A stretch of 64,000 bases of DNA from assembly GCA_949297415.1 (NCBI GenBank), contig CASFSV010000016.1, positions 171-64,170 on the forward strand. The letters are read 5' to 3'. Positions 3,810-43,856 of the stretch are shown here, piece after piece (the first letter of the stretch is position 1; each line of letters begins with the position of its first letter). The notes under the pieces are model-generated. The model was not told the DNA's origin. It did no database searches and saw nothing but the letters and a program-made list of their open reading frames with translations. This DNA is from an uncultured Alphaproteobacteria bacterium (GTDB taxonomy: Bacteria; Pseudomonadota; Alphaproteobacteria; RF32; CAG-239). Position numbers and translations under genes: made by a program.

Positions 3810-3820
3810 TATAAATACCC

Positions 3821-5401: not shown

Positions 5402-5472
5402 CGCTGTTGTAAAAAACCGAGAAGTAACTTTGTTTACTTTTAAATAATTAATAATTAACCGGAGATTTTAAT

Positions 5473-5607: not shown

Positions 5608-5618
5608 TCTTTTCGCAG

Positions 5619-5990: not shown

Positions 5991-6010
5991 ATAGAATAGG
6001 TTGATTTACA

Positions 6011-6283: not shown

Positions 6284-6368
6284 CTATGCACTTAGACTTT
6301 ACAAAACATCTTTTTTATATTAGAAAGACTAGAAATTATTTAATTAAAAATCAGGAGAGACATTACAA

Positions 6369-8045
6369 ATGAAAGATGATTTAAGATCTCTATCTTTGGC
6401 AATTTTGTTGTCGTTTATTGCTATATTTACTGTTAATTACTTTTTTGGAATTGATAAAAAGAGTGCTGTTCAAAAACAGGTTGCCGAAATTGAACAAGTT
6501 GCTGAAAAACTAAATCAAACTACCAGCAAAAATCCTGAAAATACAGTAATTAAAACGACCCAAGAAATTCTTGCTGAAGATAAACGCATCAACTTTAAAA
6601 ATGCAGCTGTTGCCGGTAGTATTCGTTTAAAAGGTGCTCGTTTCGATGATTTATATTTGACTAAGTATAATGTTACTCTTGATGATAATAGCTCCAAAGT
6701 TGAACTTCTCAAACCGGCGAATACCGATAATCAGTATTTTGCAGATTTGGGATGGTTATCTTTGGATAAGTCTATCAAACTTCCTACTGCTGATACTGTT
6801 TGGAATACAACCGATGAAGAATTGGTTCCCGGTAAAACAATTACTTTAACTTGGAATAATGGGAACGGGCTTGAATTTGTTCGGAAAATTTCTATTGACC
6901 AAAACTATTTGTTCACTATTGATGATACTATTTTCAATAATTCAAACCAAGAAGTTGATTTGTTTCCATATGCTCTTATCAGCCGTAATATAAAAAACTT
7001 TGCGCAAACTCGTTCCGTTGTTCATGAAGGTATGAATGGCGTTATTGATAATACTTTACAAGAATTTAAATATACTGATTTTGATGTAAATGATAGTGAG
7101 AAATTTGAAACTCGTGGCGGTTGGCTTGGCTTTTCAGATCGCTATTGGTTCTCAGCACTTGTTCTTGATGATAAAGATAATGTTTCTGTTACCTTCAAAA
7201 ATAATGGCGATTATAATTATCAGGTAGATTATCTTGGTTCAAGATTGATAATTCCTGCTCATAAATCTCAATCTTATTCTTATCGCTTTTTCTCGGGTGC
7301 TAAAGAGGTTAAATTACTTGATTCTTATACTAAAGATAACAATATTCCAAAATTCGATTTGGCTGTTGATTTTGGATGGTATTATTTCTTAACTAAGCCT
7401 TTTTTCTTTATTCTTGATTTTCTTTATGGTTTTCTGGGTAATATGGGCTGGGCTATCTTGTTATTTGCAGCTCTTTTACGCTTGTGCATGTTCCCTATTG
7501 CTAATAAATCATACACAAGTATGGCTAAAATGAAAGCTCTACAACCCAAAATCAACGATATTCGTGCCAAATATGGTGATAATCAAATGCTTATTCAACA
7601 AGCAACTATGGAGCTTTATAAACGTGAAAAAATTAATCCAGCTGCAGGATGTTTGCCTTTATTCATTCAAATCCCTGTATTCTTTTCTCTTTATAAAGTT
7701 TTGAACATCTCTATTGAGATTAGACACGCTCCTTTTATTGGATGGATTAAAGATTTATCGGCTCCCGATCCTTTGACTTTATCGCAAATTCTCCATATCT
7801 ATGTGCCTGGATTTATTGATATTGGTTTATGGCCGATTTTTATGGGCTTTACCATGTGGATGCAACAGAAACTTAATCCTGCTCCAGTTAATAAAGATCA
7901 AGCTAGAATGTTTGCTTTAATGCCGGTGTTCTTTACATTTATGCTCGGACATTTTGCTTCCGGATTGGTGATTTATTGGACTCTCAGCAATATTCTTTCT
8001 ATCATACAACAGAAAGTGATTATGCATAAAAACGGAGTTGACTAA
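6369..8045 (+). CDS. yidC: Membrane protein insertase YidC
   Basis: N-terminal TM, large periplasmic domain, and conserved C-terminal core MAKMKALQPKINDIRAKYGDNQMLIQQATMELYKREKINPAAGCLPLFIQIPVFFSLY with five TM segments. Confidence 0.93.
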   Translation: MKDDLRSLSLAILLSFIAIFTVNYFFGIDKKSAVQKQVAEIEQVAEKLNQTTSKNPENTVIKTTQEILAEDKRINFKNAAVAGSIRLKGARFDDLYLTKYNVTLDDNSSKVELLKPANTDNQYFADLGWLSLDKSIKLPTADTVWNTTDEELVPGKTITLTWNNGNGLEFVRKISIDQNYLFTIDDTIFNNSNQEVDLFPYALISRNIKNFAQTRSVVHEGMNGVIDNTLQEFKYTDFDVNDSEKFETRGGWLGFSDRYWFSALVLDDKDNVSVTFKNNGDYNYQVDYLGSRLIIPAHKSQSYSYRFFSGAKEVKLLDSYTKDNNIPKFDLAVDFGWYYFLTKPFFFILDFLYGFLGNMGWAILLFAALLRLCMFPIANKSYTSMAKMKALQPKINDIRAKYGDNQMLIQQATMELYKREKINPAAGCLPLFIQIPVFFSLYKVLNISIEIRHAPFIGWIKDLSAPDPLTLSQILHIYVPGFIDIGLWPIFMGFTMWMQQKLNPAPVNKDQARMFALMPVFFTFMLGHFASGLVIYWTLSNILSIIQQKVIMHKNGVD

Positions 8046-8689
8046 TGAGCCAAACTGACACACAGCAATTAGAGGATTTTTCTCTCGCTCGCGATTTCTT
8101 TAATAAAAAATGTACATTTATGTTGAGTGTTGCGAATCTTAAGCAACTTCCTAATGGAGATCGTCCGGAAGTTGCTTTTGCTGGGCGTTCTAATGTAGGT
8201 AAGTCTAGCTTAATTAATGCTCTATTTGGGCAAAAAAAATTAGCCAAAACATCTTCTACTCCGGGAAGGACGCAGCAATTAAACTATTTTAATCTAGATG
8301 ATAAATTGTATCTGGTTGATTTGCCCGGATATGGTTTTGCAAAAGCACCTAAAGATATTGTACGTAATTGGCAGCAACTAATAAATTCATATTTAGTAGG
8401 CAGGCCGAATCTTAGACGTGTTTTTCTTCTCATTGATTCTAGGCATGGCATTAAAAAAATTGATTCTGAAATCATGGATATGTTGGATAAGGCTGCTGTT
8501 ACTTATCAAATTGTTTTAACTAAAATTGATAAAATCAGTGCTTCTGCTCTCGATAGAATCGTAAAAGAAACACAAATACAGCTTAAAGAACATACCGCTG
8601 CTCATGTTTCTGTTTTAAAAACAAGTTCTGAAAAAAATCTATTTTTGGATGAGCTGAAAAATGAAATTGCAGAATTAGCGAACTTCTAA
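8045..8689 (+). CDS. engB: Ribosome biogenesis GTPase EngB/YihA
   Basis: G1 GRSNVGKSSLINAL, G3 LVDLPGYG, G4 LTKIDK. The start overlaps the yidC stop by 1 nt. Confidence 0.9.
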   Translation: MSQTDTQQLEDFSLARDFFNKKCTFMLSVANLKQLPNGDRPEVAFAGRSNVGKSSLINALFGQKKLAKTSSTPGRTQQLNYFNLDDKLYLVDLPGYGFAKAPKDIVRNWQQLINSYLVGRPNLRRVFLLIDSRHGIKKIDSEIMDMLDKAAVTYQIVLTKIDKISASALDRIVKETQIQLKEHTAAHVSVLKTSSEKNLFLDELKNEIAELANF

Positions 8690-8692: not shown

Positions 8693-9673
8693 TTAAGTTA
8701 TTTCTGTTATACCACGAATGTTTCCGTCTCTTACAATTTGCACAACGTGAAGTTTGCGGCGCATTTCTTCTATTGTTTTTTCAACATCAATATTAGGCTG
8801 CGTTCTCATAATACGTTTTACAAAAGCTTCGTATGCCGCCGTTGAACTTTCTGCGTGGATTGTAGCCAGACAGTTATCGTGTCCGGAGCCCATCAACTCC
8901 CAAATTGCTCCGGCATTACTCGTTGAAATTTCTCCGCCGATAATTGCGTCTGGCGTAAAACGCACAATCAAGTCAATCACCTTTGAGTAATCCATCGTAT
9001 TGGTTTGTTCTGTACGTGACAGTACAATGTGTACTCTGTTGGGCTGTGGCACATTTAATTCTCGTGTATCCTCCACTGTAATAACACGTTTATGTATGTC
9101 TAATAGCTTTAAGAGGTTATTTAATAGTGTTGTTTTACCAGTACCGGTACCGCCACTTACTAATATATGATCACCGCGTCGCAATGCCAATAATAACCGT
9201 TCATAAGCATCATCCGGATCCTTAATATTTTTCAATGGATTTATTTCTTTTAGTTTTTTTCCTTGCTCTAATCCGTAGTCTCCGAATCCGAATGCGACAT
9301 CATCTGTATGTAAACGAATCGTTATGGCTATTCCTCCTGTTGCAGCATCATCTAAATCATATTCAATATTTTTTCCAGCAACCCCCGTAAAACGGTGCCC
9401 TCCTGGAATTCTGGCATAAACAACCGGTGATCCATTTATTGGATCAAATTCTTGATCATTTAAATTTGCAATGATGTGAAGCAGGTTTGTCAAATATTCT
9501 CTAGTTAGTTTCGGATCTTTATAATTTACCCAAGGGAATGCTCTTTTTCCACGCAGACGTAACCATATATCTCCCGGATGATTTATGGCTACTTCTTCTA
9601 TATTTTCTTGTTCATACCAGTATGATAAAGGTCTTAATACCGAGCTTAGAACTTCATCCTCTAGTTTTCCCAT
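8693..9673 (-). CDS. virB11: T4SS ATPase VirB11
   Basis: Walker A VSGGTGTGKTTLLNNLL, VITVEDTRELN, PDAIIGGEIS, His box GHDNCLATIHAES, 326 aa, last gene of the virB operon. Its stop lies 3 nt from the engB stop (convergent). Confidence 0.9.
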   Translation of the reverse strand: MGKLEDEVLSSVLRPLSYWYEQENIEEVAINHPGDIWLRLRGKRAFPWVNYKDPKLTREYLTNLLHIIANLNDQEFDPINGSPVVYARIPGGHRFTGVAGKNIEYDLDDAATGGIAITIRLHTDDVAFGFGDYGLEQGKKLKEINPLKNIKDPDDAYERLLLALRRGDHILVSGGTGTGKTTLLNNLLKLLDIHKRVITVEDTRELNVPQPNRVHIVLSRTEQTNTMDYSKVIDLIVRFTPDAIIGGEISTSNAGAIWELMGSGHDNCLATIHAESSTAAYEAFVKRIMRTQPNIDVEKTIEEMRRKLHVVQIVRDGNIRGITEIT

Positions 9674-9753: not shown

Positions 9754-12700
9754 TTAGAATAATTCGATGTCTCCTGAAACTTCTTCTTCACTTTCCGGTA
9801 CTTCCGTTACTGTTCCATCAGCTGCCGGTGGTGGGATTGCTCCTATATTTTTACGTGATTGTTGTTGATTATTTTGGTTAGTATTATCGCTAATTAAAGG
9901 TGTTCCTCCATTATTATTGGAATTATTTGCATTATTATTTTGTGATTGATTTCCTAAAATAACTTTTTGACTACCTTTAGAGTTATTTCCTTCTACGGTT
10001 GATGTTGAGGTTCCTTCACGTCCATCATAGAATCTTTCATTTACTAAACCACCTTCGCCACCGCCTGGTATCGCTGTTGCAACTCCTTTCTGAATATCTT
10101 TTGTACTCCTTAACCATAAATCTTGCATCGGATAAATTATAACTCGTGTTCCTGCCGGGACATACGTCACTGGCTCTATTTGTGATTTACTATCTATTAT
10201 CTCTTGCAAAATTTGATCCATCTTTTCCATAAACTGTTGACGAGCATCTGAAGCAGCCTGTTGCTTAGATGTTTCTACTTCTCCGGTGCTATCTTCATCG
10301 GCGGCCATCATATATGTTATCGCTGACGTTACCATTGTACCTACAATCGGCAATGTATACTTCTTTACTAACTGTTCATCAACATAACCTAGAGCACCAC
10401 CGCCACGTCCTTGTGCATCTCCTGTTTGAGTTCTGCCCGGTGATAACAAAAATGCAATTCCATCTGGACGAATAATTCTCTCCCATGATATTTCTAGCTT
10501 TACACCACCGCTTGTATTATCAAATCTAGCTTCCGCATCTGTCGTTTGTAATCCACCTATTATTCTACTACCGGCCGGAATAATAACATTTCTTCCAGAA
10601 TCTCCATAGATATTTCTTTCGACAATTGCTGTTACCGGTGCCGAACCTAATGATATCAATGAACGTGCTAAGACTGCCGGAATTGGTTTGTCTCCGGTAA
10701 TCATATTATCCATATTGACTCTTAATGTCGATACAGAGCGATTTAACCCCCAATCATCTTGCCAGCCAGTATAGGATGCAGCATCGTACCCTGGTTCTAT
10801 TTTGGCTGCGACCATTGTTCTCCTTCTTTCATCTTGAAGCTGAGATAATATTGCTGCTCGTCTCGGATTGTAACGCCCTCCGGGGCCTATGCCGCCTCCG
10901 GGGCCAACATTCGTTATTTCATTTCCACTGCTGTATGGATTTATGGTCGCTCCTGTTGCAATTTGCTTCCACCAATTTGCATTTACGCCTTTACGATCTG
11001 TTGTTCTTTGTTGTTCAAAATTACCAACTTTATTTCCTTCATTATCAAATATTTCTCCTTTTTCATTCGTACTACCCACTACTGTACCTGATTCATCTAT
11101 TACTTTGTTGTTACTGTATACATCTCCTATGTAACGTCCTCCAGGTGTCACTGCTATTCCAACAACTTGATAGTCTTCTTTTGTTTCTTGAGCTGCCAAT
11201 TCTTCTGGACTCAAAATATCCTCTATATCTTCTTGTTGTGCGTCATTGTCTTCTATTTCCATATCGGTATTATTAATTTCTTGTTTTTCATCTTCTTGAG
11301 GTGCTATTTCATCAATTACTTTTGTATCAGGAATTTCTTTTATAATTTCTTCTTCTTTGGGTTCTGACGGACGCTGATAATACTGCAACTTTCCGGCTTG
11401 ACCAAGTAATTCCCCTGAAGATGAAATAACCTTACCTTCTTCATCAATTTTGCCTATCTCTATATTTTTTATATTAACAACGCTTCCATCCAGATTAAGA
11501 TGACCGATTATTTGATTATTATTATCCCTTATCTCGTAGTCTCTTGCTCCTCTTCCTATCAAATTCTGTTTTTTATCCAAAACAAAACCATTATATATTG
11601 AACCTTTTATTTCTCCCATTACACTGTATACACGACCATTTTTAGCAATATACCCTATGGTTTTACCTTCATTGTCATATACATATAGATCGTATAGCGC
11701 ATATCCATTACCGCCTTTTTTAATTTTGACTTCACCTGTGTATAGAACTGTTCCTAAATTTTCACCAGAATCTGAAACAACATTTCCATCAGGCTTAACC
11801 CTTCCTAAGTATATATTATTTGAATCAAACGCTACAGTGTATTGAAACGGTACGCCTATGTTTTTTCCATCTTTTGCTAAAATACTTCCGTCTAAGTCTA
11901 TTGTCGCTATTTGTATGCCGGAAGAATCTACAACATTTCCGTAGAAATTTGTGTAGCCTATAATCTTATTATCAAACCCCATAACAGACATATATGGAAT
12001 TATTTGTCCTATAATTTCTTTTTGGGAGTTTCTTACTTTTCCACTAATGTCAACACAACCTAAATTCTGATTATCGTAATTTAGAACAGTTCCGGAAGTA
12101 TTGCTAACTCCGATTATATCTCCCCCCTTGCCATTTATAGCTTGAGGATACATAATATACCCAATTACATCTTCAGTTTCATTTACAACTTGATTGTTTG
12201 CTAGTATCATTCCTAGATATGCATCTTTTGATGTGCGAGCTTCTCCTCCATCCGATACAATACCTATTACCTTACATTCAGGTGAAATTATTGCTCCCAT
12301 ATTTAGAGCTTTTCCATATAAAGCGCCCATATTATCTAAAACATATCCATTTGAGCTTATCTTTCCTATTACTTCTGAACCTTTGGTTACCTGTCCTGTC
12401 AGACTATTTACTCCCAGATAATCACCATTAATACTTACACTAATTGGAGCATTATTTGACTGACCATAATTTTGTGTGAAGTTATCGGATAATCCTACGA
12501 CATTATTATTTGGCAATATCTTTGCAAAAACTTTATTTTGAGAATTAACGACCAAATTACCAGAATTTGCAGTACCTTGCATTTCTCCTTCAAAATTTGT
12601 TATGAATTTACTTTCTATCATTTTTCCTAGTAATTTGTTATTTTTATCCAGATAAATTCCGTTTCCTGTAAATTTTGCTATTTCATTTAATGAGGGATTT

Positions 12701-14109
12701 TCTGTTTTTCCTGCATTTGAAGTAAAAGATAATGTTGTTCCATCTTCTGTATAGATACCTCCTTGTTTGATGCTTATACCACTTAATTCTCCTTTTTCAT
12801 CAAACACATACCCGTACGGTGATATTTTATAAATTTGCCCATTTGCACTTAAACTTGTCCCTATTCCGCTAATTCCCAGAAATTCATTGTTATTATTAAA
12901 ACATAAATTACTTCCTAATGTTTTTCCTATTATATTACCGTTATTATCTACTGCATCACTTTGCTGTATTGTTCCTAAATCTACTCCTTCTAGGGATACT
13001 ACTTTACCGCCGATAGCAGCATTTGCTCGTAAATTTCCTAAGTAATCAAATATAGGTCCTTCCGGATTTATTATACCAATTACCTTTCCTTTTTCATCAA
13101 TAACTTTGCCTGATGCTCCAATTGTTCCTATTACATTTCTTTTACTTAATATCTTTCCCTCTGCCGTAATTCTTCCTAAATATTTCCCATCAAGTGTATT
13201 TGCTGTAGCTGCCATACTAACAGTAAAACCTATGGTGTTTCCTTCTTTATTAATTACTCGGTTTCCGTTTACGGCATGAGCAACCACAGTCCCTTTATTA
13301 ACAACTTCTCCATTATAGCTGACAACACCGATATATTGACCATTATTATTGAAAGCATAACCATTATCAACAATATGCCCTATCGCTACCTTTTCTTTAT
13401 TATATACGTATCCATTTGCATGAATATTTCCTATAACTTTTTTCTTTAAATCCATTACCTTTCCATCTGGAGCGATACTTCCCAAATATTTTCCGGCAGA
13501 TGATATTACCATTTTTGATGTAATCAGTTTTCCTGCTAAACTAATTTTATTTTCTGTTCCTGTTGTATAAGAATATACATAACCACTTGCCGTAACATAT
13601 CCTGTATTTTCTCCTGAAAGATTATAGAACTTGCCATCACCAGATACTCGGCCTATTACTTGACCAACGTCATTATATACTAAATTTGGAGATATAGAAG
13701 CTCCTAATATATCGTAGTTGTCATTTACAATCAGCCCATTGGGCAGAGCTTTTCCTACTAAATTATCATTTACAGAAGTCACTGATCCATCATTGTTAAC
13801 TTTACCCAGTATGCTGTTATTATATGATATAGCAATTCCCTGAGGAACAACTCCTCCGATTAGATTGTTTTCATTATCATACGCAAAACCATCTGCTGTT
13901 ATGTATCCTATTAATTCGTTATCACTGTTTATTACTGAACCGTCCGGTATTACTTTTCCAATTAAATCACCGTTAAAATTAAGTGCGCTTATATCTGCTG
14001 CCATTGCTTTTACGCTCATGGCAACACATAAAAAAGCTAATTCTAATATCTTACTTAATTTTATTATGTTTTTATGCAAATCAATTCCTCCGGTTTTGCG
14101 TAACTTCAT
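9754..14109 (-). CDS. virB10: Giant VirB10-family protein: signal-peptide-like N-terminus, about 860 aa of short G-x-V-x-D-x-x-G-x-x-IG repeats, acidic linker, VirB10/TrbI barrel, N/Q-rich acidic tail
   Basis: Barrel motifs TLRVNMDNMITGDKPIPAVLARSLIS, NVIIPAGSRIIGGLQ, ISWERIIRPDGIAF, GALGYVDEQLVKKY, VPAGTRVIIYPMQDL (about 10110-10740). N-terminus ILELAFLCVAMSVKAMA/AD. Repeats such as GDLIGKVIPDGSVINSDNELIGYITADGFAYDNENNLIGG. Lies between the 2093-aa ORF and virB11. Confidence 0.85.
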   Translation of the reverse strand: MKLRKTGGIDLHKNIIKLSKILELAFLCVAMSVKAMAADISALNFNGDLIGKVIPDGSVINSDNELIGYITADGFAYDNENNLIGGVVPQGIAISYNNSILGKVNNDGSVTSVNDNLVGKALPNGLIVNDNYDILGASISPNLVYNDVGQVIGRVSGDGKFYNLSGENTGYVTASGYVYSYTTGTENKISLAGKLITSKMVISSAGKYLGSIAPDGKVMDLKKKVIGNIHANGYVYNKEKVAIGHIVDNGYAFNNNGQYIGVVSYNGEVVNKGTVVAHAVNGNRVINKEGNTIGFTVSMAATANTLDGKYLGRITAEGKILSKRNVIGTIGASGKVIDEKGKVIGIINPEGPIFDYLGNLRANAAIGGKVVSLEGVDLGTIQQSDAVDNNGNIIGKTLGSNLCFNNNNEFLGISGIGTSLSANGQIYKISPYGYVFDEKGELSGISIKQGGIYTEDGTTLSFTSNAGKTENPSLNEIAKFTGNGIYLDKNNKLLGKMIESKFITNFEGEMQGTANSGNLVVNSQNKVFAKILPNNNVVGLSDNFTQNYGQSNNAPISVSINGDYLGVNSLTGQVTKGSEVIGKISSNGYVLDNMGALYGKALNMGAIISPECKVIGIVSDGGEARTSKDAYLGMILANNQVVNETEDVIGYIMYPQAINGKGGDIIGVSNTSGTVLNYDNQNLGCVDISGKVRNSQKEIIGQIIPYMSVMGFDNKIIGYTNFYGNVVDSSGIQIATIDLDGSILAKDGKNIGVPFQYTVAFDSNNIYLGRVKPDGNVVSDSGENLGTVLYTGEVKIKKGGNGYALYDLYVYDNEGKTIGYIAKNGRVYSVMGEIKGSIYNGFVLDKKQNLIGRGARDYEIRDNNNQIIGHLNLDGSVVNIKNIEIGKIDEEGKVISSSGELLGQAGKLQYYQRPSEPKEEEIIKEIPDTKVIDEIAPQEDEKQEINNTDMEIEDNDAQQEDIEDILSPEELAAQETKEDYQVVGIAVTPGGRYIGDVYSNNKVIDESGTVVGSTNEKGEIFDNEGNKVGNFEQQRTTDRKGVNANWWKQIATGATINPYSSGNEITNVGPGGGIGPGGRYNPRRAAILSQLQDERRRTMVAAKIEPGYDAASYTGWQDDWGLNRSVSTLRVNMDNMITGDKPIPAVLARSLISLGSAPVTAIVERNIYGDSGRNVIIPAGSRIIGGLQTTDAEARFDNTSGGVKLEISWERIIRPDGIAFLLSPGRTQTGDAQGRGGGALGYVDEQLVKKYTLPIVGTMVTSAITYMMAADEDSTGEVETSKQQAASDARQQFMEKMDQILQEIIDSKSQIEPVTYVPAGTRVIIYPMQDLWLRSTKDIQKGVATAIPGGGEGGLVNERFYDGREGTSTSTVEGNNSKGSQKVILGNQSQNNNANNSNNNGGTPLISDNTNQNNQQQSRKNIGAIPPPAADGTVTEVPESEEEVSGDIELF
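10110..10740 (-). other. VirB10/TrbI C-terminal barrel domain within the 1451-aa ORF (approximate bounds)
   Basis: Checked by reverse-translating DNA: PGYDAASYTGWQDDWGLN at about 10741-10795 lies just before the domain, and YPMQDLWL at about 10110-10140 ends it. Confidence 0.7.
11397..13977 (-). repeat. Coding array of short Gly/Asp/Ile-rich repeats in the VirB10-family ORF
   Basis: Residues about 45-905 are almost entirely 10-13-aa units such as GxVxDxxGxxIG. They end just before QRPSEPKEEE, confirmed at about 11365-11385. Confidence 0.75.
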
Positions 14110-17100
14110 CTAATACATATCCGGAAACTTGATTTCGGATATTTATATATGAGCCATTACTTTTCAAATATCCGATTTTTCCATTTGTCAGACTATATAT
14201 TGTTCCGTCGGGTGATAGTCTTCCCAAAAACTTTCCGTCGTTACCCAGTATATTAGCACCTATTTTATAACTATGTCCCAATATTTTTCCATTGTTATCT
14301 ACAACTAAATTTGACGAGATAATTTTCCCAATCACTGTTTTGTCCTGATTTAATATCTTGCCTTCTGCATTTACAAATCCTACAACTTTATCGTCTTTAT
14401 TTATTACTATATCATCTTCTACGATTTCTCCTATTAAATATCCTTTGTTGTCGACTGCCTGTCCTGAATTTAATATATGACCAATCTTGATGTTTTCTGT
14501 GGAAATTACACTACCATCAGCTACAACTTGACCTATTATCTTGCCTGAATAATTTAGAACAATTCCTCTCTTAAGTACACTGTAATTTTTATTTGATGTG
14601 CCTCCCGGTAGAATTGTCGTTACTATATTATCCTCATCATCAATAATATCACCAAGCGCATTTAAATATCCTCTTATCTTACCTTGTATATCTATTATAA
14701 AATCTTCTTTAATTACTTCGCCTATTATTTGTTTATTTTCATCTAAGACGTGACCTTCTGAACCAACACTTCCACTAATGTTACCGTCTACATCTATTAC
14801 CTTGCCACTTTTGCTAACATATCCTAAATATGAACCATCATAGCCAATGCCAACACCTGTTTTTACCAAACCTCCTTTGTATTCTCCTTGTTTATCAAAC
14901 ATTCTTCCTTTGCCATCAATGTGCCCTAATTCCGTACCCAAAACATCAATAACTTTGCCGGCATTATTTACAAAACCAATATAATTTCCATTGAAGTCAA
15001 CAACAGTTCCTGTTTCTATTATTTTTCCAGCCTTTTGAGAATAGAAAGAATTACCTTCATATACAAATTTATCAACTGCTATGCCTTTCTGATTATACAC
15101 ATAGCCATCCGCAAATAGGTGTCCTATTGTTTTTCCATTTGCATCTACCACAATATTTTTCTCTGGTAGCAATATCCCTTTCACTTCCAGTTTAGGATTT
15201 ACAAGATATTTATTAAATAAAATCTTTGTATTTGGAATTATATCCTTACTGTCATATCTAAAGTTTGATAAATTATCTATAAAATCTCCTTTTATTCCAT
15301 AAGCTTGGCTCTTATCCATAACTTGTCCGATTATAAAACCGTCTTTGTTTAAAATTTCCCCTTCTAAATTTGCACATCCAATCGCTTGTGAACCATTTTT
15401 TACTGTTCCATCCTGATTAAGCAATCCCATCATTTCACCACTATAGTATAATGCATACCCAGGCTCATATACCTTACCTATTAGCTTTCCATCTTGATTT
15501 AATACACCTCCGTCAGGATTTACACAACCAACATATCCTCCGTCATTATTACGAACAAATCCATCATATTCTGCTTTTCCGATAATATTACATCTTTCAT
15601 CTCTAACAGAACCAACTTTGGCTATGTCCCCAACATAATTGCCTTCATTGTCGACGATTGTGCGGTCAAAGATCATTCGATACTCTGTTTCTTTTCCGTC
15701 TTTTTTTACTTTTGCATCTCTATCTACATACCCTAAATTTTGGCATCCCCACCCAACTGCCATTCCACCAATAACAGTTTTCCCAATTATTTTCTCTCCT
15801 TCAACAGATTTTATCAGCGAATTTGGTAAAATTTTACCTATAATTTCTTCTTTGTTATTAATAACTTCTCCTTTGTTATTAATAATTCCTAAGCTATATC
15901 CATTAGGGGATATGGCTATCATATCTTTTTTAACAACTGTTCCTATCCTTACTCCATGCGAACTGATAACATTGCCGTTTTCATCTATATAACCGATGAC
16001 TAGTCCTCTTGCATTATAAACCTTTCCATCTTCCCCTATATAACCAATTACATTACCTTCCTCATCTACCGCCAAATTGGAATAATCTCCTACCTGTCCG
16101 ATGATTTTACCATTTTCATCTACTGTAAAATCAATATTTCCGCCTACTCGACCGACTATATTCCCCTTATCGTCTTTTATGCTTCCATCTTCTTGAACCT
16201 TACCCAGTATGTTCCCATTTAAATCTCTAGCTATTCCATTTTCATCAATGTAGCCTATCACATTCCCTGCTTCATCTAGCACAGATTTGCGTGAAATAAC
16301 TTTTAAATTTCCATCCCCTTGTTCGGCTAATCTTCCTATAATTTCACCATCGCTACCATAAACATTCCCGTCTTCCGCAACAAAACCGATGACCTTACCG
16401 TTATTACCAATGACTCTCCCTTTGTCATCAACATAACCGATAACATTTCCATCTTTGTCTAATACGACCTTTGCTAAATCTCCAGCTTTTCCTATTATAT
16501 TACCATTTATATCATTTATACTGCCATCTTCTCCAAGATATCCTAGCAATTTACCCTCAAAATCTCGCACAGTACCATCTTCATCAACATAACCGATAAC
16601 ATTTCCATCTTTATCATAGGCTAATTGGCGATTTATATCTGCTTTCCCTAGTACTTCTCCTGACACACCTATAATATTACCATCTTCATCCATAAAGCCT
16701 ATAAGTTCGCCGTTTTTACCGTATACTTTACCATCTTCTCCTACATAACCTATAACATTACCGTCTTTATCCAAAGCCAAAGTTTTCGTATCTCCAACTT
16801 TGCCTATTTCTCGACCGTATGCATCTATTATTCGTCCATCTTCGGTAGCTTTGCCTATCAAATTACCTTCAAAATCGTATACATTTCCATCTTCATCAAC
16901 ATAACCGATGACATTACCATCTTTATCATAAGCTACTCTTCCATTTTTCCCTACACTACCTATTACCTCATTTGTATTCTTTAGTATATTACCATTTTCA
17001 TCTACATAACCTATAACATTACCTTTGAAATCTTTAACACTGCCATCTTTATCAACAAAACCGATAACTTTACCATCTTTATCATAGGCAAGATTTTTAG

Positions 17101-20100
17101 CAGCTCCTACTTTGCCTATTATGTTACCATTTTTATCAATAACATTACCATTTTCGTCTACGCGACCTATAATGTTTCCGTTTTCATCAATAACATTACC
17201 ATTTTCATCGACATAGCCAATAATGTTTCCATCTTTATCATAGGCTAATCTTACGCTCTTACATGCCGTACATATAACTTCTCCGACAGCTTTTACTTCA
17301 TTATCTTCCGTTACATATCCGATTAGTTTGTTATCTTGGTTGAAAGCTAAATTGTTTTCTTTCATGTACCCAATAACATTATTTCCCTTATCCTTTAATG
17401 TTTTTTTATCCGCATCCAATTTTCCTATTATATTCTCTTTGACACTTAAAACATCCCCTTTAATATCAACAACACCTATTATTTTATCTTCATTTCCTCT
17501 TACATAATTTTGAGCATCTATATAGCCAATAATACTTTTATCCGCTTTTTGTACCACATTTAAAAATTCACCACGGGTTCCTATCAATAAACCTTTACTA
17601 TCTACTATATCTCCATTTTTATTTGTCCCAATGATTTTATTGCTAAAGTTTTTTACAATATCATTTTTATCTATGTAGCCTATAACCGTACCTCTTTTAT
17701 TTTTTATAATTCTTTTTCTAATACAGGTTCGACCGATTACCGTATCTCCAGCTTTGATTACATTCCCTTGCTTATCAATAAACCCTACTAAATTTCCGTT
17801 TTCATCAACAACTCGCCCGTCCTCATTTATATATCCTATAATATTTCCATTTTTATCTGTAGCAACTTGTTTATAGTCTCCGGCTTTTCCTATTACACGC
17901 CCTTTTTTATCTAGGATACTGCCATCTTCGGCCATCCGCCCTATTAAATTGCCCTTGAAATCCTTCACTGTTCCATCTGGTGTTACATAACCTATAACTT
18001 TGCCATTTTTATCGTAAGCAAGTCTTTTGAAATTTCCGGCAACTCCTAATTTTTCTCCGCTTGATGCTATTATATTACCGTTCTTATCAACTATTCCGAT
18101 AATTTTGCCATCACAGTTAATCACGCGTTTTTTCTCATCTATATAGCCAATAAATATCCCTTGATTATTGAAAGCTAATTCTTTTATTCCTCCAACTTTA
18201 CCTATTATTTTGCCATCTTTGTCGATTACATTGCCTGACGCGTCTTTTTTACCAATAACACTTCCTCCGCAACCTTTAACTATACCGTCTGTATCAACAT
18301 ATCCTATAAATTTACCATTTTTATCATAGGCTATTTCTCTTGATGTTCCGGCTTTTCCTATTATTTTTCCATTCGTTCCGATTATCTGCCCTTTGTCATC
18401 TACATAACCTAGAAGTGTGCCATCTTTTCCTATTACTCGACCTTTATCATCGACAACACCGATGACATTTCCTTTTTTATCATAGGCTACAGTTGCATAA
18501 TTACCTGCTTTTCCAATTTTTTGACCGTTCTTACCTATAATGTCACCTTTTTTATTTACTTTTCCAATGATGTTCCCTTCAAAATCTATTACATTGCCAT
18601 CATCATCTATATAGCCTATAGGCTTTCCATCCTTACCTAGAGCTATTCTTTTTTTATTCCCCTCTACACCTGCTTGCTTGGTACTAATGATATTTCCGTT
18701 TTTATCAACATTGCCTATATGTTTGCCATTATGATCAAAAACACGCCCTTGCTCATCTACATATCCGATGACGTTGCCATCTTTATCTAATGCTAATTTT
18801 GCATAAGCTCCTGCTTTTCCAATGATTTTTCCATCTTTATTAACGATATTTCCATCTTTATCCAATTTTCCGATAACATTGCCTTTGAAATCTCTTACTG
18901 TTCCATCCTTATCTACATATCCTATGACATTGCCATCTTTATCATAAGCCAACCTGCGGCTAACACCGACTTTTCCGATTACATCTGCTTTTTTATTATC
19001 TTGATCAAATTTAACAACTTTTCCATTTGCATCTATATATCCGATAGCTTTTCCGTCTTTGTCGTACACAATTTTACGACTCTCTCCATTTGTTCCTATC
19101 TTTTCTTTGGCTATTTTATATACATTGCCATTTTCGTCTACGTACCCGACCACATTACCATCTTGATCTACTACGCTGTTATCTGGCATGACAACACCTA
19201 AGACATTACCATTTTCATCCACTACTATATTTCCTGATGATGTTACTTTTCCGATGATATTGCCATTTTCATCAACAACTTCACCATTTTCATTTAAACG
19301 TCCTATAATTTTTTTAGGATCGTTTATATCAACAACAGTTCCATCAGGTAAAACTCGACCTATTATCTTACCATTTTTGTCATATACAAATCCTGCTTCA
19401 ACGGCTTTTCCTATAATTTCGCCCTTACTATTGACTATTGTTCCATCTGGTAGTGCTTTACCAATTACTTCTCCTTGCAAATCAACCACTGTTCCATCTG
19501 TCTTAACATAGCCAATAATGTTTCCATCTTTATCATAGGCTAATTTCATATTTTGTGCTACACCTATTATATTACCGTCGGCATCAACAATAAGCCCATC
19601 CTCATTTACTCGACCGATAATATTTCCGTCTTTATCATGAACATTTCCTGCTTCATCAATATACCCTATAATTTCCCCATTGGGACCTATTGCTAGACGA
19701 TGTGCACCTATACCGCTTTCATCTCCTATTGTGCATCCACTTCCTGAACTGCAATTTTGCGGATTATCCTCTGGATATACAGCACTTCCTCTGATGCTTA
19801 CTTCTTCAGACTTTGCACTTGATTTATCTAGTCTTGTTTCATACCATATTATCTTAAAATTATTTTGAACATTACCAGGTAAATGTGGAACCCACGTTAT
19901 TAAAACATTACAAGTTTCATCTCCGCGTAGATCTCTGTTTTTACATTTATCTCTAAACTCGAATCCATCTTCCGTTTCTTCAACCAATTCAACTCTTTCA
20001 ATATGGATACTTTCACTTCCGTCTGTACCTATTGTCAAAACACTTTGATTTTGAGTATCTACTCCTAAAATAAATTTATTCATGTTTATTTGAGCAGGTG

Positions 20101-20362
20101 TAACTTTTATAGGCTTACTTTTAGTCTCGCCTGAAGTTGTTTCTGTATCTATAAATATTGGTCCTGTATCAGCATTGATTTCTGGTAAAATGTTCTGATT
20201 TTCTACAAAATCAGGGGTTTCCTCTTCAGGATTATAAACCTCTGTATCAGACGAAATAATTAACAAACCAAACAAAAAGAAGCAGAAAGCGATAATTCCT
20301 ATGGTAAAAATTATCTTTCGAGTTTTTCTTTCATATTCTTCAAACCGAGTGTTCTCGTTCAT
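14081..20362 (-). CDS. Giant (2093 aa) bitopic repeat protein of unknown function embedded between virB9 and virB10
   Basis: Short charged N-terminus plus one TM (KIIFTIGIIAFCFFLFGLLIISS), then a beta-sandwich-looking module (ILGVDTQNQSVLTIGTDGSESIHIERVELV...CNVLITWVPHLPGNVQNNFKIIWYE), then about 1850 aa of repeats (DKDGNVIGYVDEDGNVYDFEGNLIGKA). Its start overlaps the virB9 stop by 4 nt. Its stop overlaps the VirB10-family start by 29 nt. Confidence 0.8.
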   Translation of the reverse strand: MNENTRFEEYERKTRKIIFTIGIIAFCFFLFGLLIISSDTEVYNPEEETPDFVENQNILPEINADTGPIFIDTETTSGETKSKPIKVTPAQINMNKFILGVDTQNQSVLTIGTDGSESIHIERVELVEETEDGFEFRDKCKNRDLRGDETCNVLITWVPHLPGNVQNNFKIIWYETRLDKSSAKSEEVSIRGSAVYPEDNPQNCSSGSGCTIGDESGIGAHRLAIGPNGEIIGYIDEAGNVHDKDGNIIGRVNEDGLIVDADGNIIGVAQNMKLAYDKDGNIIGYVKTDGTVVDLQGEVIGKALPDGTIVNSKGEIIGKAVEAGFVYDKNGKIIGRVLPDGTVVDINDPKKIIGRLNENGEVVDENGNIIGKVTSSGNIVVDENGNVLGVVMPDNSVVDQDGNVVGYVDENGNVYKIAKEKIGTNGESRKIVYDKDGKAIGYIDANGKVVKFDQDNKKADVIGKVGVSRRLAYDKDGNVIGYVDKDGTVRDFKGNVIGKLDKDGNIVNKDGKIIGKAGAYAKLALDKDGNVIGYVDEQGRVFDHNGKHIGNVDKNGNIISTKQAGVEGNKKRIALGKDGKPIGYIDDDGNVIDFEGNIIGKVNKKGDIIGKNGQKIGKAGNYATVAYDKKGNVIGVVDDKGRVIGKDGTLLGYVDDKGQIIGTNGKIIGKAGTSREIAYDKNGKFIGYVDTDGIVKGCGGSVIGKKDASGNVIDKDGKIIGKVGGIKELAFNNQGIFIGYIDEKKRVINCDGKIIGIVDKNGNIIASSGEKLGVAGNFKRLAYDKNGKVIGYVTPDGTVKDFKGNLIGRMAEDGSILDKKGRVIGKAGDYKQVATDKNGNIIGYINEDGRVVDENGNLVGFIDKQGNVIKAGDTVIGRTCIRKRIIKNKRGTVIGYIDKNDIVKNFSNKIIGTNKNGDIVDSKGLLIGTRGEFLNVVQKADKSIIGYIDAQNYVRGNEDKIIGVVDIKGDVLSVKENIIGKLDADKKTLKDKGNNVIGYMKENNLAFNQDNKLIGYVTEDNEVKAVGEVICTACKSVRLAYDKDGNIIGYVDENGNVIDENGNIIGRVDENGNVIDKNGNIIGKVGAAKNLAYDKDGKVIGFVDKDGSVKDFKGNVIGYVDENGNILKNTNEVIGSVGKNGRVAYDKDGNVIGYVDEDGNVYDFEGNLIGKATEDGRIIDAYGREIGKVGDTKTLALDKDGNVIGYVGEDGKVYGKNGELIGFMDEDGNIIGVSGEVLGKADINRQLAYDKDGNVIGYVDEDGTVRDFEGKLLGYLGEDGSINDINGNIIGKAGDLAKVVLDKDGNVIGYVDDKGRVIGNNGKVIGFVAEDGNVYGSDGEIIGRLAEQGDGNLKVISRKSVLDEAGNVIGYIDENGIARDLNGNILGKVQEDGSIKDDKGNIVGRVGGNIDFTVDENGKIIGQVGDYSNLAVDEEGNVIGYIGEDGKVYNARGLVIGYIDENGNVISSHGVRIGTVVKKDMIAISPNGYSLGIINNKGEVINNKEEIIGKILPNSLIKSVEGEKIIGKTVIGGMAVGWGCQNLGYVDRDAKVKKDGKETEYRMIFDRTIVDNEGNYVGDIAKVGSVRDERCNIIGKAEYDGFVRNNDGGYVGCVNPDGGVLNQDGKLIGKVYEPGYALYYSGEMMGLLNQDGTVKNGSQAIGCANLEGEILNKDGFIIGQVMDKSQAYGIKGDFIDNLSNFRYDSKDIIPNTKILFNKYLVNPKLEVKGILLPEKNIVVDANGKTIGHLFADGYVYNQKGIAVDKFVYEGNSFYSQKAGKIIETGTVVDFNGNYIGFVNNAGKVIDVLGTELGHIDGKGRMFDKQGEYKGGLVKTGVGIGYDGSYLGYVSKSGKVIDVDGNISGSVGSEGHVLDENKQIIGEVIKEDFIIDIQGKIRGYLNALGDIIDDEDNIVTTILPGGTSNKNYSVLKRGIVLNYSGKIIGQVVADGSVISTENIKIGHILNSGQAVDNKGYLIGEIVEDDIVINKDDKVVGFVNAEGKILNQDKTVIGKIISSNLVVDNNGKILGHSYKIGANILGNDGKFLGRLSPDGTIYSLTNGKIGYLKSNGSYINIRNQVSGYVLDEVTQNRRN
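14105..19690 (-). repeat. Coding array of short G-x-(V/I)-x-D-x-x-G-x-(V/I)-IG repeats spanning most of the 2093-aa ORF
   Basis: By manual reading, repeats start near residue 225 (IGPNGEIIGYIDEAGNVHDKDGNIIGRV) and run to the C-terminus (GKIGYLKSNGSYINIRNQVSGYV). Confidence 0.8.
16315..18952 (-). repeat. Most regular part of the array: higher-order unit of about 52 aa / 156 bp anchored on LAYDKDGN(V/I)IGYVD
   Basis: The anchor motif recurs at residues about 471, 523, 574, 626, 678, 729, 781, 833, 1039, 1091, 1144, 1196, 1247 and 1300 (manual count). Similar DNA stretches of the form acataaccgat[a/g]acatt[t/a]ccatcttt occur near 16431, 16587 and 16899. Confidence 0.7.
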
Positions 20363-22314
20363 TGTACTCTGACCACACTACAAAATATACCATTACGTCC
20401 TAATTGACTGCAAATATTGTCACCTTCTTCTAGTGATTTTACAGGGCCGACACGAAGATGAAAAACTTCTTTTCCCTGACCGTCTGCTGGGGTATCTACT
20501 GAATAGAAAGGCTGATATTTACCTAATGTTGCTGAATAATTTTTCGAAATATCATTCCATAATTTCTCTAAATTATTTACATCTTTGTCTGTTCCTAGCT
20601 CTATGGAAATATTACTTTCATTATTATTTGTAAAAGCTTTTCCATCTCTGAATTCTTTAAGTAATGCTTCTGTTTCTGCTGAAACTAATGAATTTTGCTT
20701 TTCTAAATCATTGTCTTTAGGAGTAATCAACACCGGACTAGAGTTATTACTTGAATTACCAATTTGAGGAATACTTTTTGTTTTTTGTACATTCTGTTGA
20801 ACATCTTTTTGATATGTTACAGATGTATTTGATTTATCATTATATTGTGGTGTTACTAATTCTGCTCCATTAGCTTTTATATCATACTGTCCTGTCAGTT
20901 CTTCTTGCTTTTGTTCAGACTCTGGAGTTGCAACAAAAGTCTTTGCTTTTGGGATTGAATCTAACAGGGTTGTTTCTCCACCTGTGGATTGTACTTGGGA
21001 TGTACTTGGAATTGAAGCCTCTGACGTGGATTTAACTTGTGTTTTATTTATGGATGATTTCTTTCCACTAATCATATCTTCATAACTTAAACCATTATCT
21101 CCTGTTGTTGAAGAATTGTTTGTATTTTCAGTTGGATCAAAAAATGAACTTACTCCCCAAAATGCTTCTTTCTGATTATTGCTATTTTCTGTTTTCTTTC
21201 CATAAACATCATCGTAATTTTCAGTATTTTGTTCCTCGCTTTCTACTGTTTTCTGATAACGTTTGGCTTGTAAATCCCATTCATTCGTTTTAGCGTAAAC
21301 AGTATTCTCTAGACCATCTGAATCTGCTCGTCTTAATTTCAAGCATACAATTCTTTTACCGCTACGGAGAACCATATCGCCCATACCTTCCACTATTATC
21401 AAACGGTTATTGGGTCCAGCCGTTCTAAAACCAACAGGCGTTTCTGAACGTTCCACAATCAACGTAACAATAGGTCTTTGATTAGCTGTTAGTGCTTTAT
21501 CCCCTAAATCAATATATGTAAAGATATTATCTCTCCATACACGCTCAGGAGCTATCACAATATCATCTGGATTCGGGACATAAACTTCTATATCAAAACG
21601 AAATTGTGTCGGATCAACCGGTATTTTTTCAATCCAATCTTCTTTTTGCAAATCTCTTGTAAATGTCGAATCCGTACTGCTACCGTTTTGACCATAGCTA
21701 TTTGCATTTATATGACCACCACTATTATTACTGCCTACTACTGCTGAACCTGTTGCATTTTGGCGTCTTTTAACAACTTCTATATCAATTATCGCATTCG
21801 TTATTCTGTCTGTATTTACCGTTTCACTTTGAACATAGAAAACATATTTATTTCCAGAGCGCCCAAAAACAATCATATTGGTATCAACTCCGACAAATTG
21901 CGAAGAATCCGGATAGACCATCAAACTTGACGGTCCTTGTATTTCTGCGTTAAATGATTGTCCATCTCCTATATATACGTTTTCTATAACTTCCCAACTT
22001 GGAAAATTTATCAAAGTATACATACCTTCTCTAACTCTAACTGGTAGTACCAATTCAGGTGTCCAATAGTATTTGGTATATCCCGGCCGGGTTTGCCCCT
22101 CTCCCATGTGCTGCAAAGGATCTTTCCAGGCACTTTGCATCATGCCTAATGATCCAACACCTCCTAAATAATTCAAATTTGTCGCAGCATAATTTCCTTG
22201 GCTTTGATCTGCATTTTGATCTAAATTATCTTTTGTTACTTGTGCTTGTACGGCAGGAACCAATATACCTGCTGATATTAATATTACAGATAAAATGTTT
22301 ACTATCTTCATCAT
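20359..22314 (-). CDS. virB9: VirB9-family outer-membrane core protein with long S/T/N/Q-rich linker and C-terminal SPOR-like domain
   Basis: Signal peptide MMKIVNILSVILISAGILVPAVQA. VirB9/TrbG N-domain YYWTPELVLPVRVREGMYTLINFPSWEVIENVYIGDG...MIVFGRSGNKYVFYVQSE. C-domain FRFDIEVYVPNPD...IAPERVWRDNIFTYIDLG...PIVTLIVERSETPVGFR...LIIVEGMGDMVLRSGKRIVCL. The SPOR-like end is listed separately. Confidence 0.85.
   Translation of the reverse strand: MMKIVNILSVILISAGILVPAVQAQVTKDNLDQNADQSQGNYAATNLNYLGGVGSLGMMQSAWKDPLQHMGEGQTRPGYTKYYWTPELVLPVRVREGMYTLINFPSWEVIENVYIGDGQSFNAEIQGPSSLMVYPDSSQFVGVDTNMIVFGRSGNKYVFYVQSETVNTDRITNAIIDIEVVKRRQNATGSAVVGSNNSGGHINANSYGQNGSSTDSTFTRDLQKEDWIEKIPVDPTQFRFDIEVYVPNPDDIVIAPERVWRDNIFTYIDLGDKALTANQRPIVTLIVERSETPVGFRTAGPNNRLIIVEGMGDMVLRSGKRIVCLKLRRADSDGLENTVYAKTNEWDLQAKRYQKTVESEEQNTENYDDVYGKKTENSNNQKEAFWGVSSFFDPTENTNNSSTTGDNGLSYEDMISGKKSSINKTQVKSTSEASIPSTSQVQSTGGETTLLDSIPKAKTFVATPESEQKQEELTGQYDIKANGAELVTPQYNDKSNTSVTYQKDVQQNVQKTKSIPQIGNSSNNSSPVLITPKDNDLEKQNSLVSAETEALLKEFRDGKAFTNNNESNISIELGTDKDVNNLEKLWNDISKNYSATLGKYQPFYSVDTPADGQGKEVFHLRVGPVKSLEEGDNICSQLGRNGIFCSVVRVQ
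20362..20616 (-). other. SPOR-like (peptidoglycan-binding) domain at the C-terminus of VirB9 (approximate bounds)
   Basis: ISIELGTDKDVNNLEKLWNDISKNYSATLGKYQPFYSVDTPADGQGKEVFHLRVGPVKSLEEGDNICSQLGRNGIFCSVVRVQ follows the SPOR pattern (beta-alpha-beta-beta x2, hLRVGP..s.eEa..iC..L...g..C.vv). Confidence 0.6.
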
Positions 22315-23092: not shown

Positions 23093-23103
23093 ATTTTTTT
23101 ACC

Positions 23104-23292
23104 CTAACTGATAGCCTTAAACCAATCTGGTAAAGTTTTAGGTAACTCTACTTCAATGCAAGCACATGGCGACAATTTCAATTCGTAAACATCTTTACCT
23201 ATTCCTACGGGTTCCGGCTCATAATATGTACCTACCAAATTGCATGCGGCTAATATTAAAACTGCAGAACCGATAATTATTGCTTTATACAT
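23104..23292 (-). CDS. virB7: Small lipoprotein in the VirB7 position
   Basis: 62 aa with lipobox LILAAC at residues 12-17. Lies between the two virB8 copies and upstream of virB9. The call rests on size, lipobox and position only. Confidence 0.55.
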   Translation of the reverse strand: MYKAIIIGSAVLILAACNLVGTYYEPEPVGIGKDVYELKLSPCACIEVELPKTLPDWFKAIS

Positions 23293-23434
23293 GATTAACC
23301 CTCTAAATAATTTCCATCTATTTATAATTAAAACTTTTATTTTTAAAAGTCTAACGAGAAAATAAATTGCCTCGACTTATCAACAGGCTAAATCGTTTTG
23401 TTGGAATTTTAACATATCAATACTTAAAAATTTT

Positions 23435-43853: not shown

Positions 43854-43856
43854 GAG

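Follow-up and report, generated by a model that had tools for sequence, protein, structure and literature searches.

A stretch of 64,000 nucleotides from an uncultured Alphaproteobacteria bacterium (contig CASFSV010000016.1, positions 171–64,170; GCA_949297415.1), hereafter the window, carries a virB-type type IV secretion system (T4SS) operon in which two adjacent, translationally coupled genes are probably the N- and C-terminal halves of one giant VirB10 expanded by β-hairpin repeats. VirB10, ordinarily one chain of ~350–450 aa with a Pro-rich linker, is generally described as the one T4SS subunit that spans both membranes, where it relays energy-dependent signals of the ATPases at the inner membrane to the gate in the outer membrane. 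Residues and coordinates are given throughout as in the window. Open reading frame (ORF) calls and hidden Markov model (HMM) searches with Pfam and NCBIfam placed the operon on the minus strand, where the two genes lie between virB9 and virB11:

14081–20362, minus strand: VirB10-N (the 'giant'), 2093 aa, probable inner-membrane-anchored half of the split giant VirB10
9754–14079, minus strand: VirB10-C, ~1441 aa from the probable start codon TTG 14079 (longest ORF 1451 aa from ATG 14109), probable Sec-exported barrel half

Two huge ORFs at 14081–20362 and 9754–14109, the first sharing 4 nt with virB9, had been singled out by a model that read the letters of the DNA and its ORFs (the original prediction). 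Both are indeed present and translate without internal stops, and the giant's ATG overlaps the VirB9 stop by 4 nt (ATGA). A search with Pfam found no TrbI domain in the giant, and VirB10-C carries no transmembrane (TM) anchor but a conserved signal peptide of the cleavable type. Encoded as two genes, this VirB10 bridge cannot be one covalent chain.

Evidence for the split came from relatives in which the two halves are joined. A database search with the giant returned ~90 proteins with both β-flower and TrbI domains, and the confirmed single-chain VirB10s were 2,170–2,610 aa long. In these relatives (the full sequences of four and the N-termini of about two dozen were inspected), a tail and TM helix are followed by an immunoglobulin-like (Ig) module in which two Cys are invariant, then by a CxxC loop, hairpins over ~1,700 aa and the TrbI barrel, and the chain ends in ...ELF or ...MF. 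Their genes lie directly between virB9 and virB11, with no ORF between. The N-terminal 200–350 aa of the giant are colinear with the N-terminus of the unsplit proteins. As the single-chain relatives share both architecture and operon place with the window pair, the pair most likely represents a giant VirB10 in two pieces. The original prediction had pictured a VirB10 that was split and whose halves were both filled with one repeat family; the split is strongly supported, and the order probably differs, because the unsplit relatives are already full of repeats.

We next consider how widely the arrangement occurs. A scan of related loci with one genome per species gave 22 loci, all from uncultured gut Alphaproteobacteria (sources were human, deer, buffalo and rumen samples, and the label of some records reads Acetobacter sp. 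or Rickettsiales). Giant orthologues were taken from the genome loci, as a homologue search for close full-length ones gave fragments and distant proteins alone. Barrel identity to the window was 54–90% across these loci, and in every one an intact giant (1,990–2,340 aa) was followed by VirB10 (1,384–1,473 aa) and then VirB11. Two distant metagenome loci read VirB8 - small ORF - VirB8 - VirB9 - giant - VirB10 - VirB11, with giants of 1,037 (L024) and 1,353 aa. The predicted order virB9-giant-VirB10-virB11 therefore recurs in 22 of 22 species-level genomes and in both distant loci, and both the giant's C-terminus and the position of the pair between virB9 and virB11 are conserved in 25 loci. 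A 2093-aa product identical to that of the window comes from an independent ENA assembly. Public annotation calls such proteins 'TrbI/VirB10 family' or 'DUF3659 domain-containing'.

The junction of the two genes is equally conserved. Read directly, the giant gene ends ...CAA AAC CGG AGG AAT TGA, and its R-R-N codons contain GGAGGA:

14086–14091, minus strand: Shine-Dalgarno sequence GGAGGA for the VirB10-C start, embedded in the giant's last codons (CGG AGG AAT), present in 25 of 25 loci

The pattern ...AAY CGG AGG AAN TRA was invariant across the 25 loci, giving the giant an NRRN C-terminus before the stop that is, at least partly, a ribosome-binding site. The start codon after the stop was TTG at +1 in 22 loci, ATG in 2 and TTG at +2 in 1, and stop-to-start spacing was 1–2 nt in nearly all 25, the exceptions being 7 nt (L016) and a 1-nt TGATG overlap (L024). 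In the window, TTG 14079 lies one nt past the giant's stop. As GGAGGA and a start after the stop are conserved, and ATG 14109, the longest-ORF start, is missing from about nine of the 25 loci, VirB10-C probably begins at TTG 14079; the start 'MKLRKTGG' at ATG 14109 that had been proposed, with its 29-nt ORF overlap, is probably not real. Classic termination–reinitiation coupling of this kind would keep the halves near 1:1.

Along its length, the giant divides into six parts:

20246–20362, minus strand: aa 1–39, charged cytoplasmic tail (RKTRK before the helix) and single TM helix
20111–20245, minus strand: aa 40–84, acidic linker, predicted disordered (predicted local distance difference test score, pLDDT, 30–38)
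19769–20110, minus strand: aa 85–198, predicted disulfide-bearing PapD-like/ASH/choice-of-anchor-D Ig β-sandwich, C140 and C151 invariant
18953–19705, minus strand: aa 220–470, conserved 'core' hairpin repeats with a 17-aa period (pLDDT 75–92)
15923–18952, minus strand: aa 471–1480, 52-aa superrepeats of three hairpins each, lineage-specific expansion
14084–15922, minus strand: aa 1481–2093, conserved degenerate C-terminal hairpins, ending ...GYVLDEVTQNRRN

A charged tail and one TM helix had been read from the sequence, and hydropathy (peak at aa 17–35, 2.91) and the AlphaFold2 (AF2) model (helix 4–37) both agree with this. The segment is 64–95% identical across the clade and is kept in the fused homologues; the linker behind it is poorly conserved (41–84%). 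In AF2 model 1, which covers giant residues 1–470 (18 aligned homologues, pLDDT 73.6), the Cys-containing module forms a β-sandwich at aa 85–195 (pLDDT 80–90), and Foldseek matched it to the HYDIN PapD-like domain 2e6j (TMt 0.73), MSP 1m1s (0.66) and 6fvi (0.60), which bears out its earlier reading as a β-sandwich. The module itself had no hit among Pfam (E ≤10) or NCBIfam (E ≤1) HMMs, and its profile retrieves proteins built from NCBIfam choice-of-anchor D (NF012200) domains. By its modelled fold, it is probably a divergent PapD-like/ASH member, assigned at superfamily level only. A disordered Cys loop separates the sandwich from the hairpins, which are regular in the model from aa 222 on, with 5-residue and 3-residue strands alternating; these core hairpins are 76–96% identical across the clade. 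Further along, two in-register superrepeat runs of six units each occupy aa 573–884 and 1039–1350. The C-terminal part has a four-Cys cluster (C1540, C1591, C1613 and C1663) whose 51/22/50 spacing is the same as in the fused proteins.

VirB10-C can be divided in the same way:

13999–14079, minus strand: signal peptide MHKNIIKLSKILELAFLCVAMSVKAMA followed by ADIS, with an AxA cleavage motif (rule-based call)
11410–13998, minus strand: aa 38–900, ~50 irregular β-hairpins of the giant's repeat family
11155–11409, minus strand: aa 901–985, acidic fast-evolving linker (isoelectric point 4.05, net charge −19)
10720–11154, minus strand: aa 986–1130, few hairpins, then Gly/Pro-rich GPGGGIGPGGRYNPRR into the barrel
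10090–10719, minus strand: aa 1131–1340, TrbI/VirB10 β-barrel domain (PF03743)
9757–10089, minus strand: aa 1341–1451, Asn/Gly/Ser-rich fast-evolving tail ending ...IELF

All the elements named for this ORF in the original prediction are present: a start resembling a signal peptide, a TrbI barrel and, between them, ~860 aa of repeats from the giant's family and an acidic linker. Across loci, the mature N-terminus ADISALNFNGDLIGKVIPDG hardly varies; signal peptide and mature start, (A/S)D(I/M)SA(L/I)(N/D)F.G.L.GKVIPDG, occur in all close loci, and the distant loci read EEISAVDF (L024) and QEITAIDF (L025). The hairpins match Bflower_2 (E 7.6e-50 to 3.4e-53, 9 stretches, 167.9 bits) and show the 17-aa autocorrelation. 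The barrel matches PF03743 at aa 1137–1333 (E 8.8e-28, 97.9 bits against a cut-off of 35) over positions 2–188 of the 188 in the profile, and its PDB relatives are ComB10 2bhv (E 8.8e-18), then TrwE, X. citri VirB10 and CagY. As the NCBIfam models T4SS_VirB10 (85.4 bits, cut-off 220) and T4SS_ComB10 (115 bits, cut-off 300) both matched below their cut-offs, VirB10-C is a divergent VirB10/TrbI member and not an equivalog. Identity across the clade is 50–88% in the hairpins, 39–57% in the acidic linker where this can be aligned, 46–90% in aa 986–1130 and 76–98% in the barrel.

Conservation thus differs along the pair: it is as high in the Ig module and in the hairpins of the next 250 aa as in the barrel, lower in the superrepeats and VirB10-C hairpins, and lowest in the fast-evolving acidic linker and tails. 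Being as conserved as the barrel, the Ig module and core hairpins are under purifying selection. The 1,037-aa giant is colinear with window giant residues 1–~400 and ~1457–2093, aa 1481–2093 corresponding to its aa 401–1037. As this orthologue aligns only with the flanks, the central ~1,050 aa of the window's giant represent a lineage-specific superrepeat expansion. Total repeat length differs by >1,000 aa between lineages, which argues that the arrays do not serve as a fixed-length ruler.

The repeats themselves have a base period of 17 aa, equal to one hairpin, as judged by autocorrelation (peaks at 52, 17 and 104 aa), and the 52-aa superrepeat, 3 × 17 + 1, runs through giant aa ~470–1480. 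In total, the giant contains ~110 17-residue hairpins in ~1,870 aa of Gly/Asp/Ile/Val-rich repeats. The original claim of one repeat family over ~1850 aa therefore stands, whereas its units of 10–13 residues give way to the 17-aa period. Against Pfam, the giant matched Bflower_2 (PF21785) with E 1.7e-139 and 456.6 bits (cut-off 38) in 22 stretches, Bflower (PF21784) with E 3e-85 and 282.6 bits, and DUF3659 (PF12396) with E 1e-60 and 202 bits; the DUF3659 lead of the original prediction was right, with the β-flower families stronger still. The tip motif [DNEQ]xxG occurs ~100 times in the giant and ~45 times in VirB10-C, and AF2 places two-strand units every 17 aa. A model of six superrepeats (aa 1039–1350) was all-β with pLDDT 82.6 and a predicted template modelling score (pTM) of 0.52. 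Confident, all-β models speak against disordered low-complexity sequence, which had been named as an outcome that would undo the prediction. Foldseek with the superrepeat model gave no global match (TM-score ≤0.16) and no Tubby-like hit in the top 50, and the only local resemblance was to Rhs cores, TcC and teneurin, with a root-mean-square deviation (rmsd) near 20 Å.

At the DNA level, the repeats barely register: Tandem Repeats Finder (TRF) reported two short arrays only, and 156-nt units are 60–72% and 51-nt units 62–86% identical. The DNA copies are old and diverged. In CagY of Helicobacter pylori, DNA repeats recombine to tune function; recombining DNA repeats of this kind were rejected here on the 60–86% copy identity and the two short TRF arrays. 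In some unsplit VirB10s, such as P0168 (residues ~1720–2070), we observed a tandem module of another kind, which is ~79 aa long, has paired Cys and is repeated ~5 times before the barrel, and following the pattern …C.NAQYNG.V.DKNGNLLYTIKCGK.YDK.G.LIGTID…. Different lineages have amplified different hairpin-derived units.

How did the split arise? A neighbour-joining tree of the barrels, which was unrooted, grouped 80 split-type proteins in one clade with 65 single-chain proteins outside it, and this one clade fits a single split event. To our knowledge, every characterised VirB10 is one chain from TM helix to barrel, and fission is for this reason preferred over fusion. We propose that a single fission of a VirB10 already full of repeats gave rise to the split, and that the window's N-half would later have grown by ~1,050 aa through its 52-aa superrepeats. 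As an alternative origin, duplication of the whole gene followed by reciprocal loss found no support, as the short giant and its VirB10-C partner share no colinear similarity. Between split and fused proteins, reliable mapping was confined to the two ends and one four-Cys cluster, and identities of the Ig module from group to group gave a trichotomy. Mature VirB10-C aa 38–190 (window 13540–13998) are ~40% identical to residues ~360–495 of nearly all fused proteins. The N-terminus of VirB10-C is thus most similar to a fused segment just past the Ig module and first hairpins, and not to the middle as a simple cut predicts. A local duplication or deletion at the time of the split may have produced this likeness.

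The positive charge ahead of the TM helix, the acidic stretch behind it, the conserved Cys pairs and the Sec signal on VirB10-C all point to a periplasmic location of both hairpin arrays, in which they would replace the Pro-rich linker of ordinary VirB10. There, the two arrays could re-associate non-covalently, for example by β-sheet packing between arrays, to build a large periplasmic scaffold (ring or cage) from the inner-membrane complex to the VirB7/VirB9/VirB10 outer-membrane core. The original prediction had suggested a fibre, a sheath or a very long spacer. As ~160 hairpins per pair far exceed the width of the periplasm, and as length differs by >1,000 aa, a straight fixed-length spacer is unlikely; the most plausible form seems to be a ring or cage packed laterally around the channel, with partial surface exposure as its main rival. 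If VirB10 gates the channel, the break in the chain would leave a non-covalent contact between the halves as the only path for a mechanical or allosteric signal from one membrane to the other. That the system forms a new class of T4SS, in which ~160 hairpins per pair multiplied by the core symmetry make up a megadalton periplasmic cage, sheath or extracellular fibre with a non-covalent VirB10 link, is a possibility that we advance only tentatively.

Several points weigh against the split VirB10 and the scaffold as drawn here. The polarity of fission versus fusion follows from parsimony alone, and rooting with ComB10, X. citri VirB10 and CagY met saturated distances, with bootstraps split four ways. 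Mapping of the fission point by chunked BLAST, end-segment BLAST, motif and Cys landmarks and global alignment scores showed that the repeat interiors of split and fused proteins are not colinear and give inconsistent best hits. Signal-peptide and topology calls were rule-based, made without a predictor. The predicted arrays may be closed β-flower barrels, an open ribbon or a shell, and hairpin content ranges from ~2,570 to ~3,800 aa per pair. No polytopic VirB6-like ORF, VirD4 coupling protein or relaxase was found within the 64-kb window, and the absence of the first two counts here; all three are either elsewhere in the genome, as in scattered rvh systems, or absent from the machine.

Could the two ORFs be something other than a split VirB10? 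The pair has the end-to-end architecture of the single-chain relatives, as would be expected if a frameshift or nonsense mutation, through an error in a metagenome-assembled genome (MAG) or recent decay, had broken one giant virB10. We give almost no credence to such an artefact or pseudogene: the same stop and embedded GGAGGA, together with a start codon, recur across species and samples in 25 independent loci, the start is followed by a signal peptide that is conserved, the 80 split-type clusters form a clade, and both halves are under purifying selection. The ORFs are intact in 22 of 22 genomes and the giant is identical in the independent assembly, in keeping with the original prediction, which resequencing with frameshifts or stops would have overturned. 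An Rhs/YD-type shell, that is, a toxin-encapsulating or cargo cocoon on the T4SS, is very improbable. Weak matches to RHS_repeat (E 1.3e-17) and YD_repeat_2x (E 3.9e-27), a PDB sequence hit, likewise weak, to Tse15, an Rhs effector (E 0.005), and the best local Foldseek hits of the superrepeat model (Rhs cores, TcC and teneurin) hint at it, but neither HMM match contains a significant single RHS/YD stretch (both list 0 stretches), and β-flower/DUF3659 matches are stronger by ~45–120 orders of magnitude in E-value. In addition, no DPxG(L/W) C-terminal protease motif or toxin domain was found, and a TM helix, joined in relatives by a VirB10 barrel, anchors the family. On the Foldseek scores (TM-score ≤0.16, rmsd near 20 Å) and the missing Rhs hallmarks, the idea was rejected.

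A surface-exposed fibre or adhesin, displayed by or threaded through the T4SS and contacting host mucus, host cells or other bacteria, deserves more weight, even if we regard it as unlikely; the giant would then serve as a contact organelle and not as a scaffold in the periplasm. Its ~110 hairpins would carry the giant far beyond a crossing of the periplasm (~40–100 nm when extended, estimated at ~1 nm per hairpin), and the superrepeat block is, as exposed parts often are, variable in length (giants of 1,990–2,340, 1,037 and 1,353 aa) and less conserved. Going by the reference list of PMC9371333, the repeat-inflated CagY has been reported to have host-interacting repeat domains. However, the N-terminus of the giant is a conserved inner-membrane anchor and not a cleavable signal, and in the single-chain relatives the repeats sit between TM helix and barrel, so that both ends are fixed in the envelope. 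The HMM scan found no autotransporter, sortase or pilin-like features, and the old, diverged DNA copies give no sign of ongoing antigenic variation.

The remainder of the operon fits a virB-type system, as follows:

38072–39395, minus strand: three VirB2/TrbC pilin paralogues in tandem (HMM and ORF calls)
37703–37993, minus strand: VirB3-like ORF, 96 aa, overlapping the VirB4 start
35266–37713, minus strand: VirB4, single copy in the window
24214–35217, minus strand: five secreted coiled-coil-rich proteins of 407, 731, 232, 458 and 1824 aa, without family match
22334–24193, minus strand: two VirB8 paralogues flanking a 62-aa lipoprotein
23104–23292, minus strand: VirB7-like lipoprotein, 62 aa, with a LAAC lipobox
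20359–22314, minus strand: VirB9/CagX homologue, 651 aa, with a SPOR-like C-terminal domain (CagX E 9.4e-15, SPOR E 3.4e-4)
8693–9673, minus strand: VirB11 ATPase, last gene of the operon (TIGR02788 E 5e-47, T2SSE)

At 651 aa, VirB9 is well above the ~200-aa CagX profile that it matched. Its last ~75 residues match the SPOR peptidoglycan-binding domain (21.3 bits, cut-off 21), and its C-terminal 250 aa are 44–96% identical between relatives. The five secreted ORFs occupy the place expected for virB5/virB6, each with a signal peptide and highly charged coiled-coil-like sequence, and most have an AF(I)WPV(I/M)D-type motif after the signal peptide. A VirB5/TrbJ identity, for which this TrbJ/VirB5-like motif speaks, was set aside as no more than a lead, since no Pfam match appeared even at E ≤10. 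In assembly L001 (positions 1–6149, compared with window 24214–31046), which has an identical giant, a 1390-aa protein stands against the 1824 aa of the window, and 404 aa against 458 aa; it appears that close strains differ in these secreted proteins but not in the VirB10 halves.

The operon ends ~7 kb from dnaA-dnaN-recF (28–3809), with gpsA, rnpA, yidC and an EngB-like GTPase between (window 28–8689). Adjoining the replication-origin gene cluster, it is a fixed chromosomal feature and not a mobile island. The GTPase and yidC flank is also present in the other assembly inspected (L001), and an ORF of similar size lies downstream of virB11 in most related loci. Divergent from the T4SS operon, a type IVb (Tcp/Bfp-like) pilus operon occupies 41150–50136 on the plus strand and encodes TcpQ, a secretin, a PilO-type accessory protein, a T2SSE ATPase, a T2SSF platform protein and a bundlin-like pilin; another T2SSE-family ATPase lies at 50150–51097 on the minus strand. 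GC skew stays strongly negative between ~4 kb and ~41 kb (down to −0.53 within the giant repeats) and turns positive past ~42 kb, following the minus-strand gene block and the G-rich repeat codons.

Full-text literature searches found no description of RF32 type IV secretion, of VirB10 combined with DUF3659 or of VirB10 gene fission, and for DUF3659 alone they brought up one unrelated paper. These searches agree with the original prediction that the arrangement, here read as a VirB10 expanded by β-hairpin repeats and naturally split, is undescribed. Conservation in at least 80 protein clusters and 22 species-level genomes suggests that the split system works. If it does, a natural split VirB10 shows that covalent continuity is not essential, and a non-covalent VirB10 link, if true, would show that continuity to be dispensable for both assembly and gating; the single-chain sister lineages offer a ready comparison for the split form. 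A megadalton β-structure, if true, would be without parallel among solved T4SSs. In the hosts, uncultured Alphaproteobacteria widespread in human and ruminant guts, a conserved chromosomal T4SS beside the origin genes likely matters for interaction with the host or with neighbouring microbes.

Compared with the canonical VirB10s (A. tumefaciens VirB10, pKM101 TraF, R388 TrwE, X. citri VirB10 and H. pylori ComB10), the TrbI barrel and the position between virB9 and virB11 are alike, and the pair as a whole likewise has a tail and TM helix at its N-terminal end and a barrel towards its C-terminal end. Tail and TM helix share a chain with the barrel in the single-chain relatives, and they are combined with it in the pair taken together, but not in VirB10-C. 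In contrast to the canonical proteins, the linker consists of ~2,700 aa of β-hairpins plus an Ig domain, and the chain is split into an anchored half and a Sec-exported barrel half. A Pro-rich periplasmic linker is not present; there is only a short GPGGGIGPGG stretch before the barrel.

The Rickettsiales vir homolog (rvh) T4SS has an RvhB10 of ordinary size. It resembles the window in the order VirB8-VirB7-VirB8-VirB9-VirB10-VirB11, the duplicated VirB8 and the several VirB2 paralogues, and in one fused-type relative the B8–B11 block lies apart from the other genes. In R. typhi, the genes are arranged as rvhB8-II | rvhB7-rvhB8-I-rvhB9-II-rvhB10-rvhB11 (PMC4676284). Whereas rvh has several VirB6 and duplicated VirB4 and VirB9, the window is without VirB6 paralogues and has a single VirB4 and a single VirB9. 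The hosts here are gut-associated MAGs and not known intracellular bacteria, and the likeness is one of gene order.

H. pylori CagY is likewise a VirB10 homologue enlarged several-fold by internal repeats in an expanded T4SS, and the barrel has weak sequence similarity to it (E 6e-4). The CagY repeats are alpha-helical modules according to Delahay 2008, as cited in PMC9371333. Unlike the single-chain, alpha-helical CagY, the protein here has β-hairpin repeats, with DNA copies that are 60–86% identical, and is split. Thus, the label 'CagY-style' given in the original prediction is apt for a repeat-inflated VirB10 but does not extend to alpha-helical repeats with near-identical DNA copies. Another enlarged VirB10-family protein, DotG/IcmE of Legionella, has internal repeats of a different, pentapeptide-like type and is a single chain; the search for barrel relatives recovered no sequence match to it. 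DotG is much larger than the VirB10s of minimized systems and contributes to the periplasmic ring and the outer-membrane part (PMC9371333). The list of repeat-inflated VirB10s (CagY, DotG) hereby gains an all-β type.

For the recently named β-flower/DUF3659 repeat, this is the first functional context found in the literature searched. As described by Durairaj et al. 2023 (PMC10584680), β-flowers are small domains of ~100 aa without a known function, in which hairpin 'petals', tipped by the semi-conserved motif [DNEQ]xxG, close into a shallow symmetric barrel of 8, 10 or 12 strands. The repeats of the window are alike in their strong HMM matches (PF21784, PF21785 and PF12396; clan CL0395) and in the tip motif, but differ from the described β-flowers in that 50–110 hairpins follow one another in tandem inside a T4SS core component.

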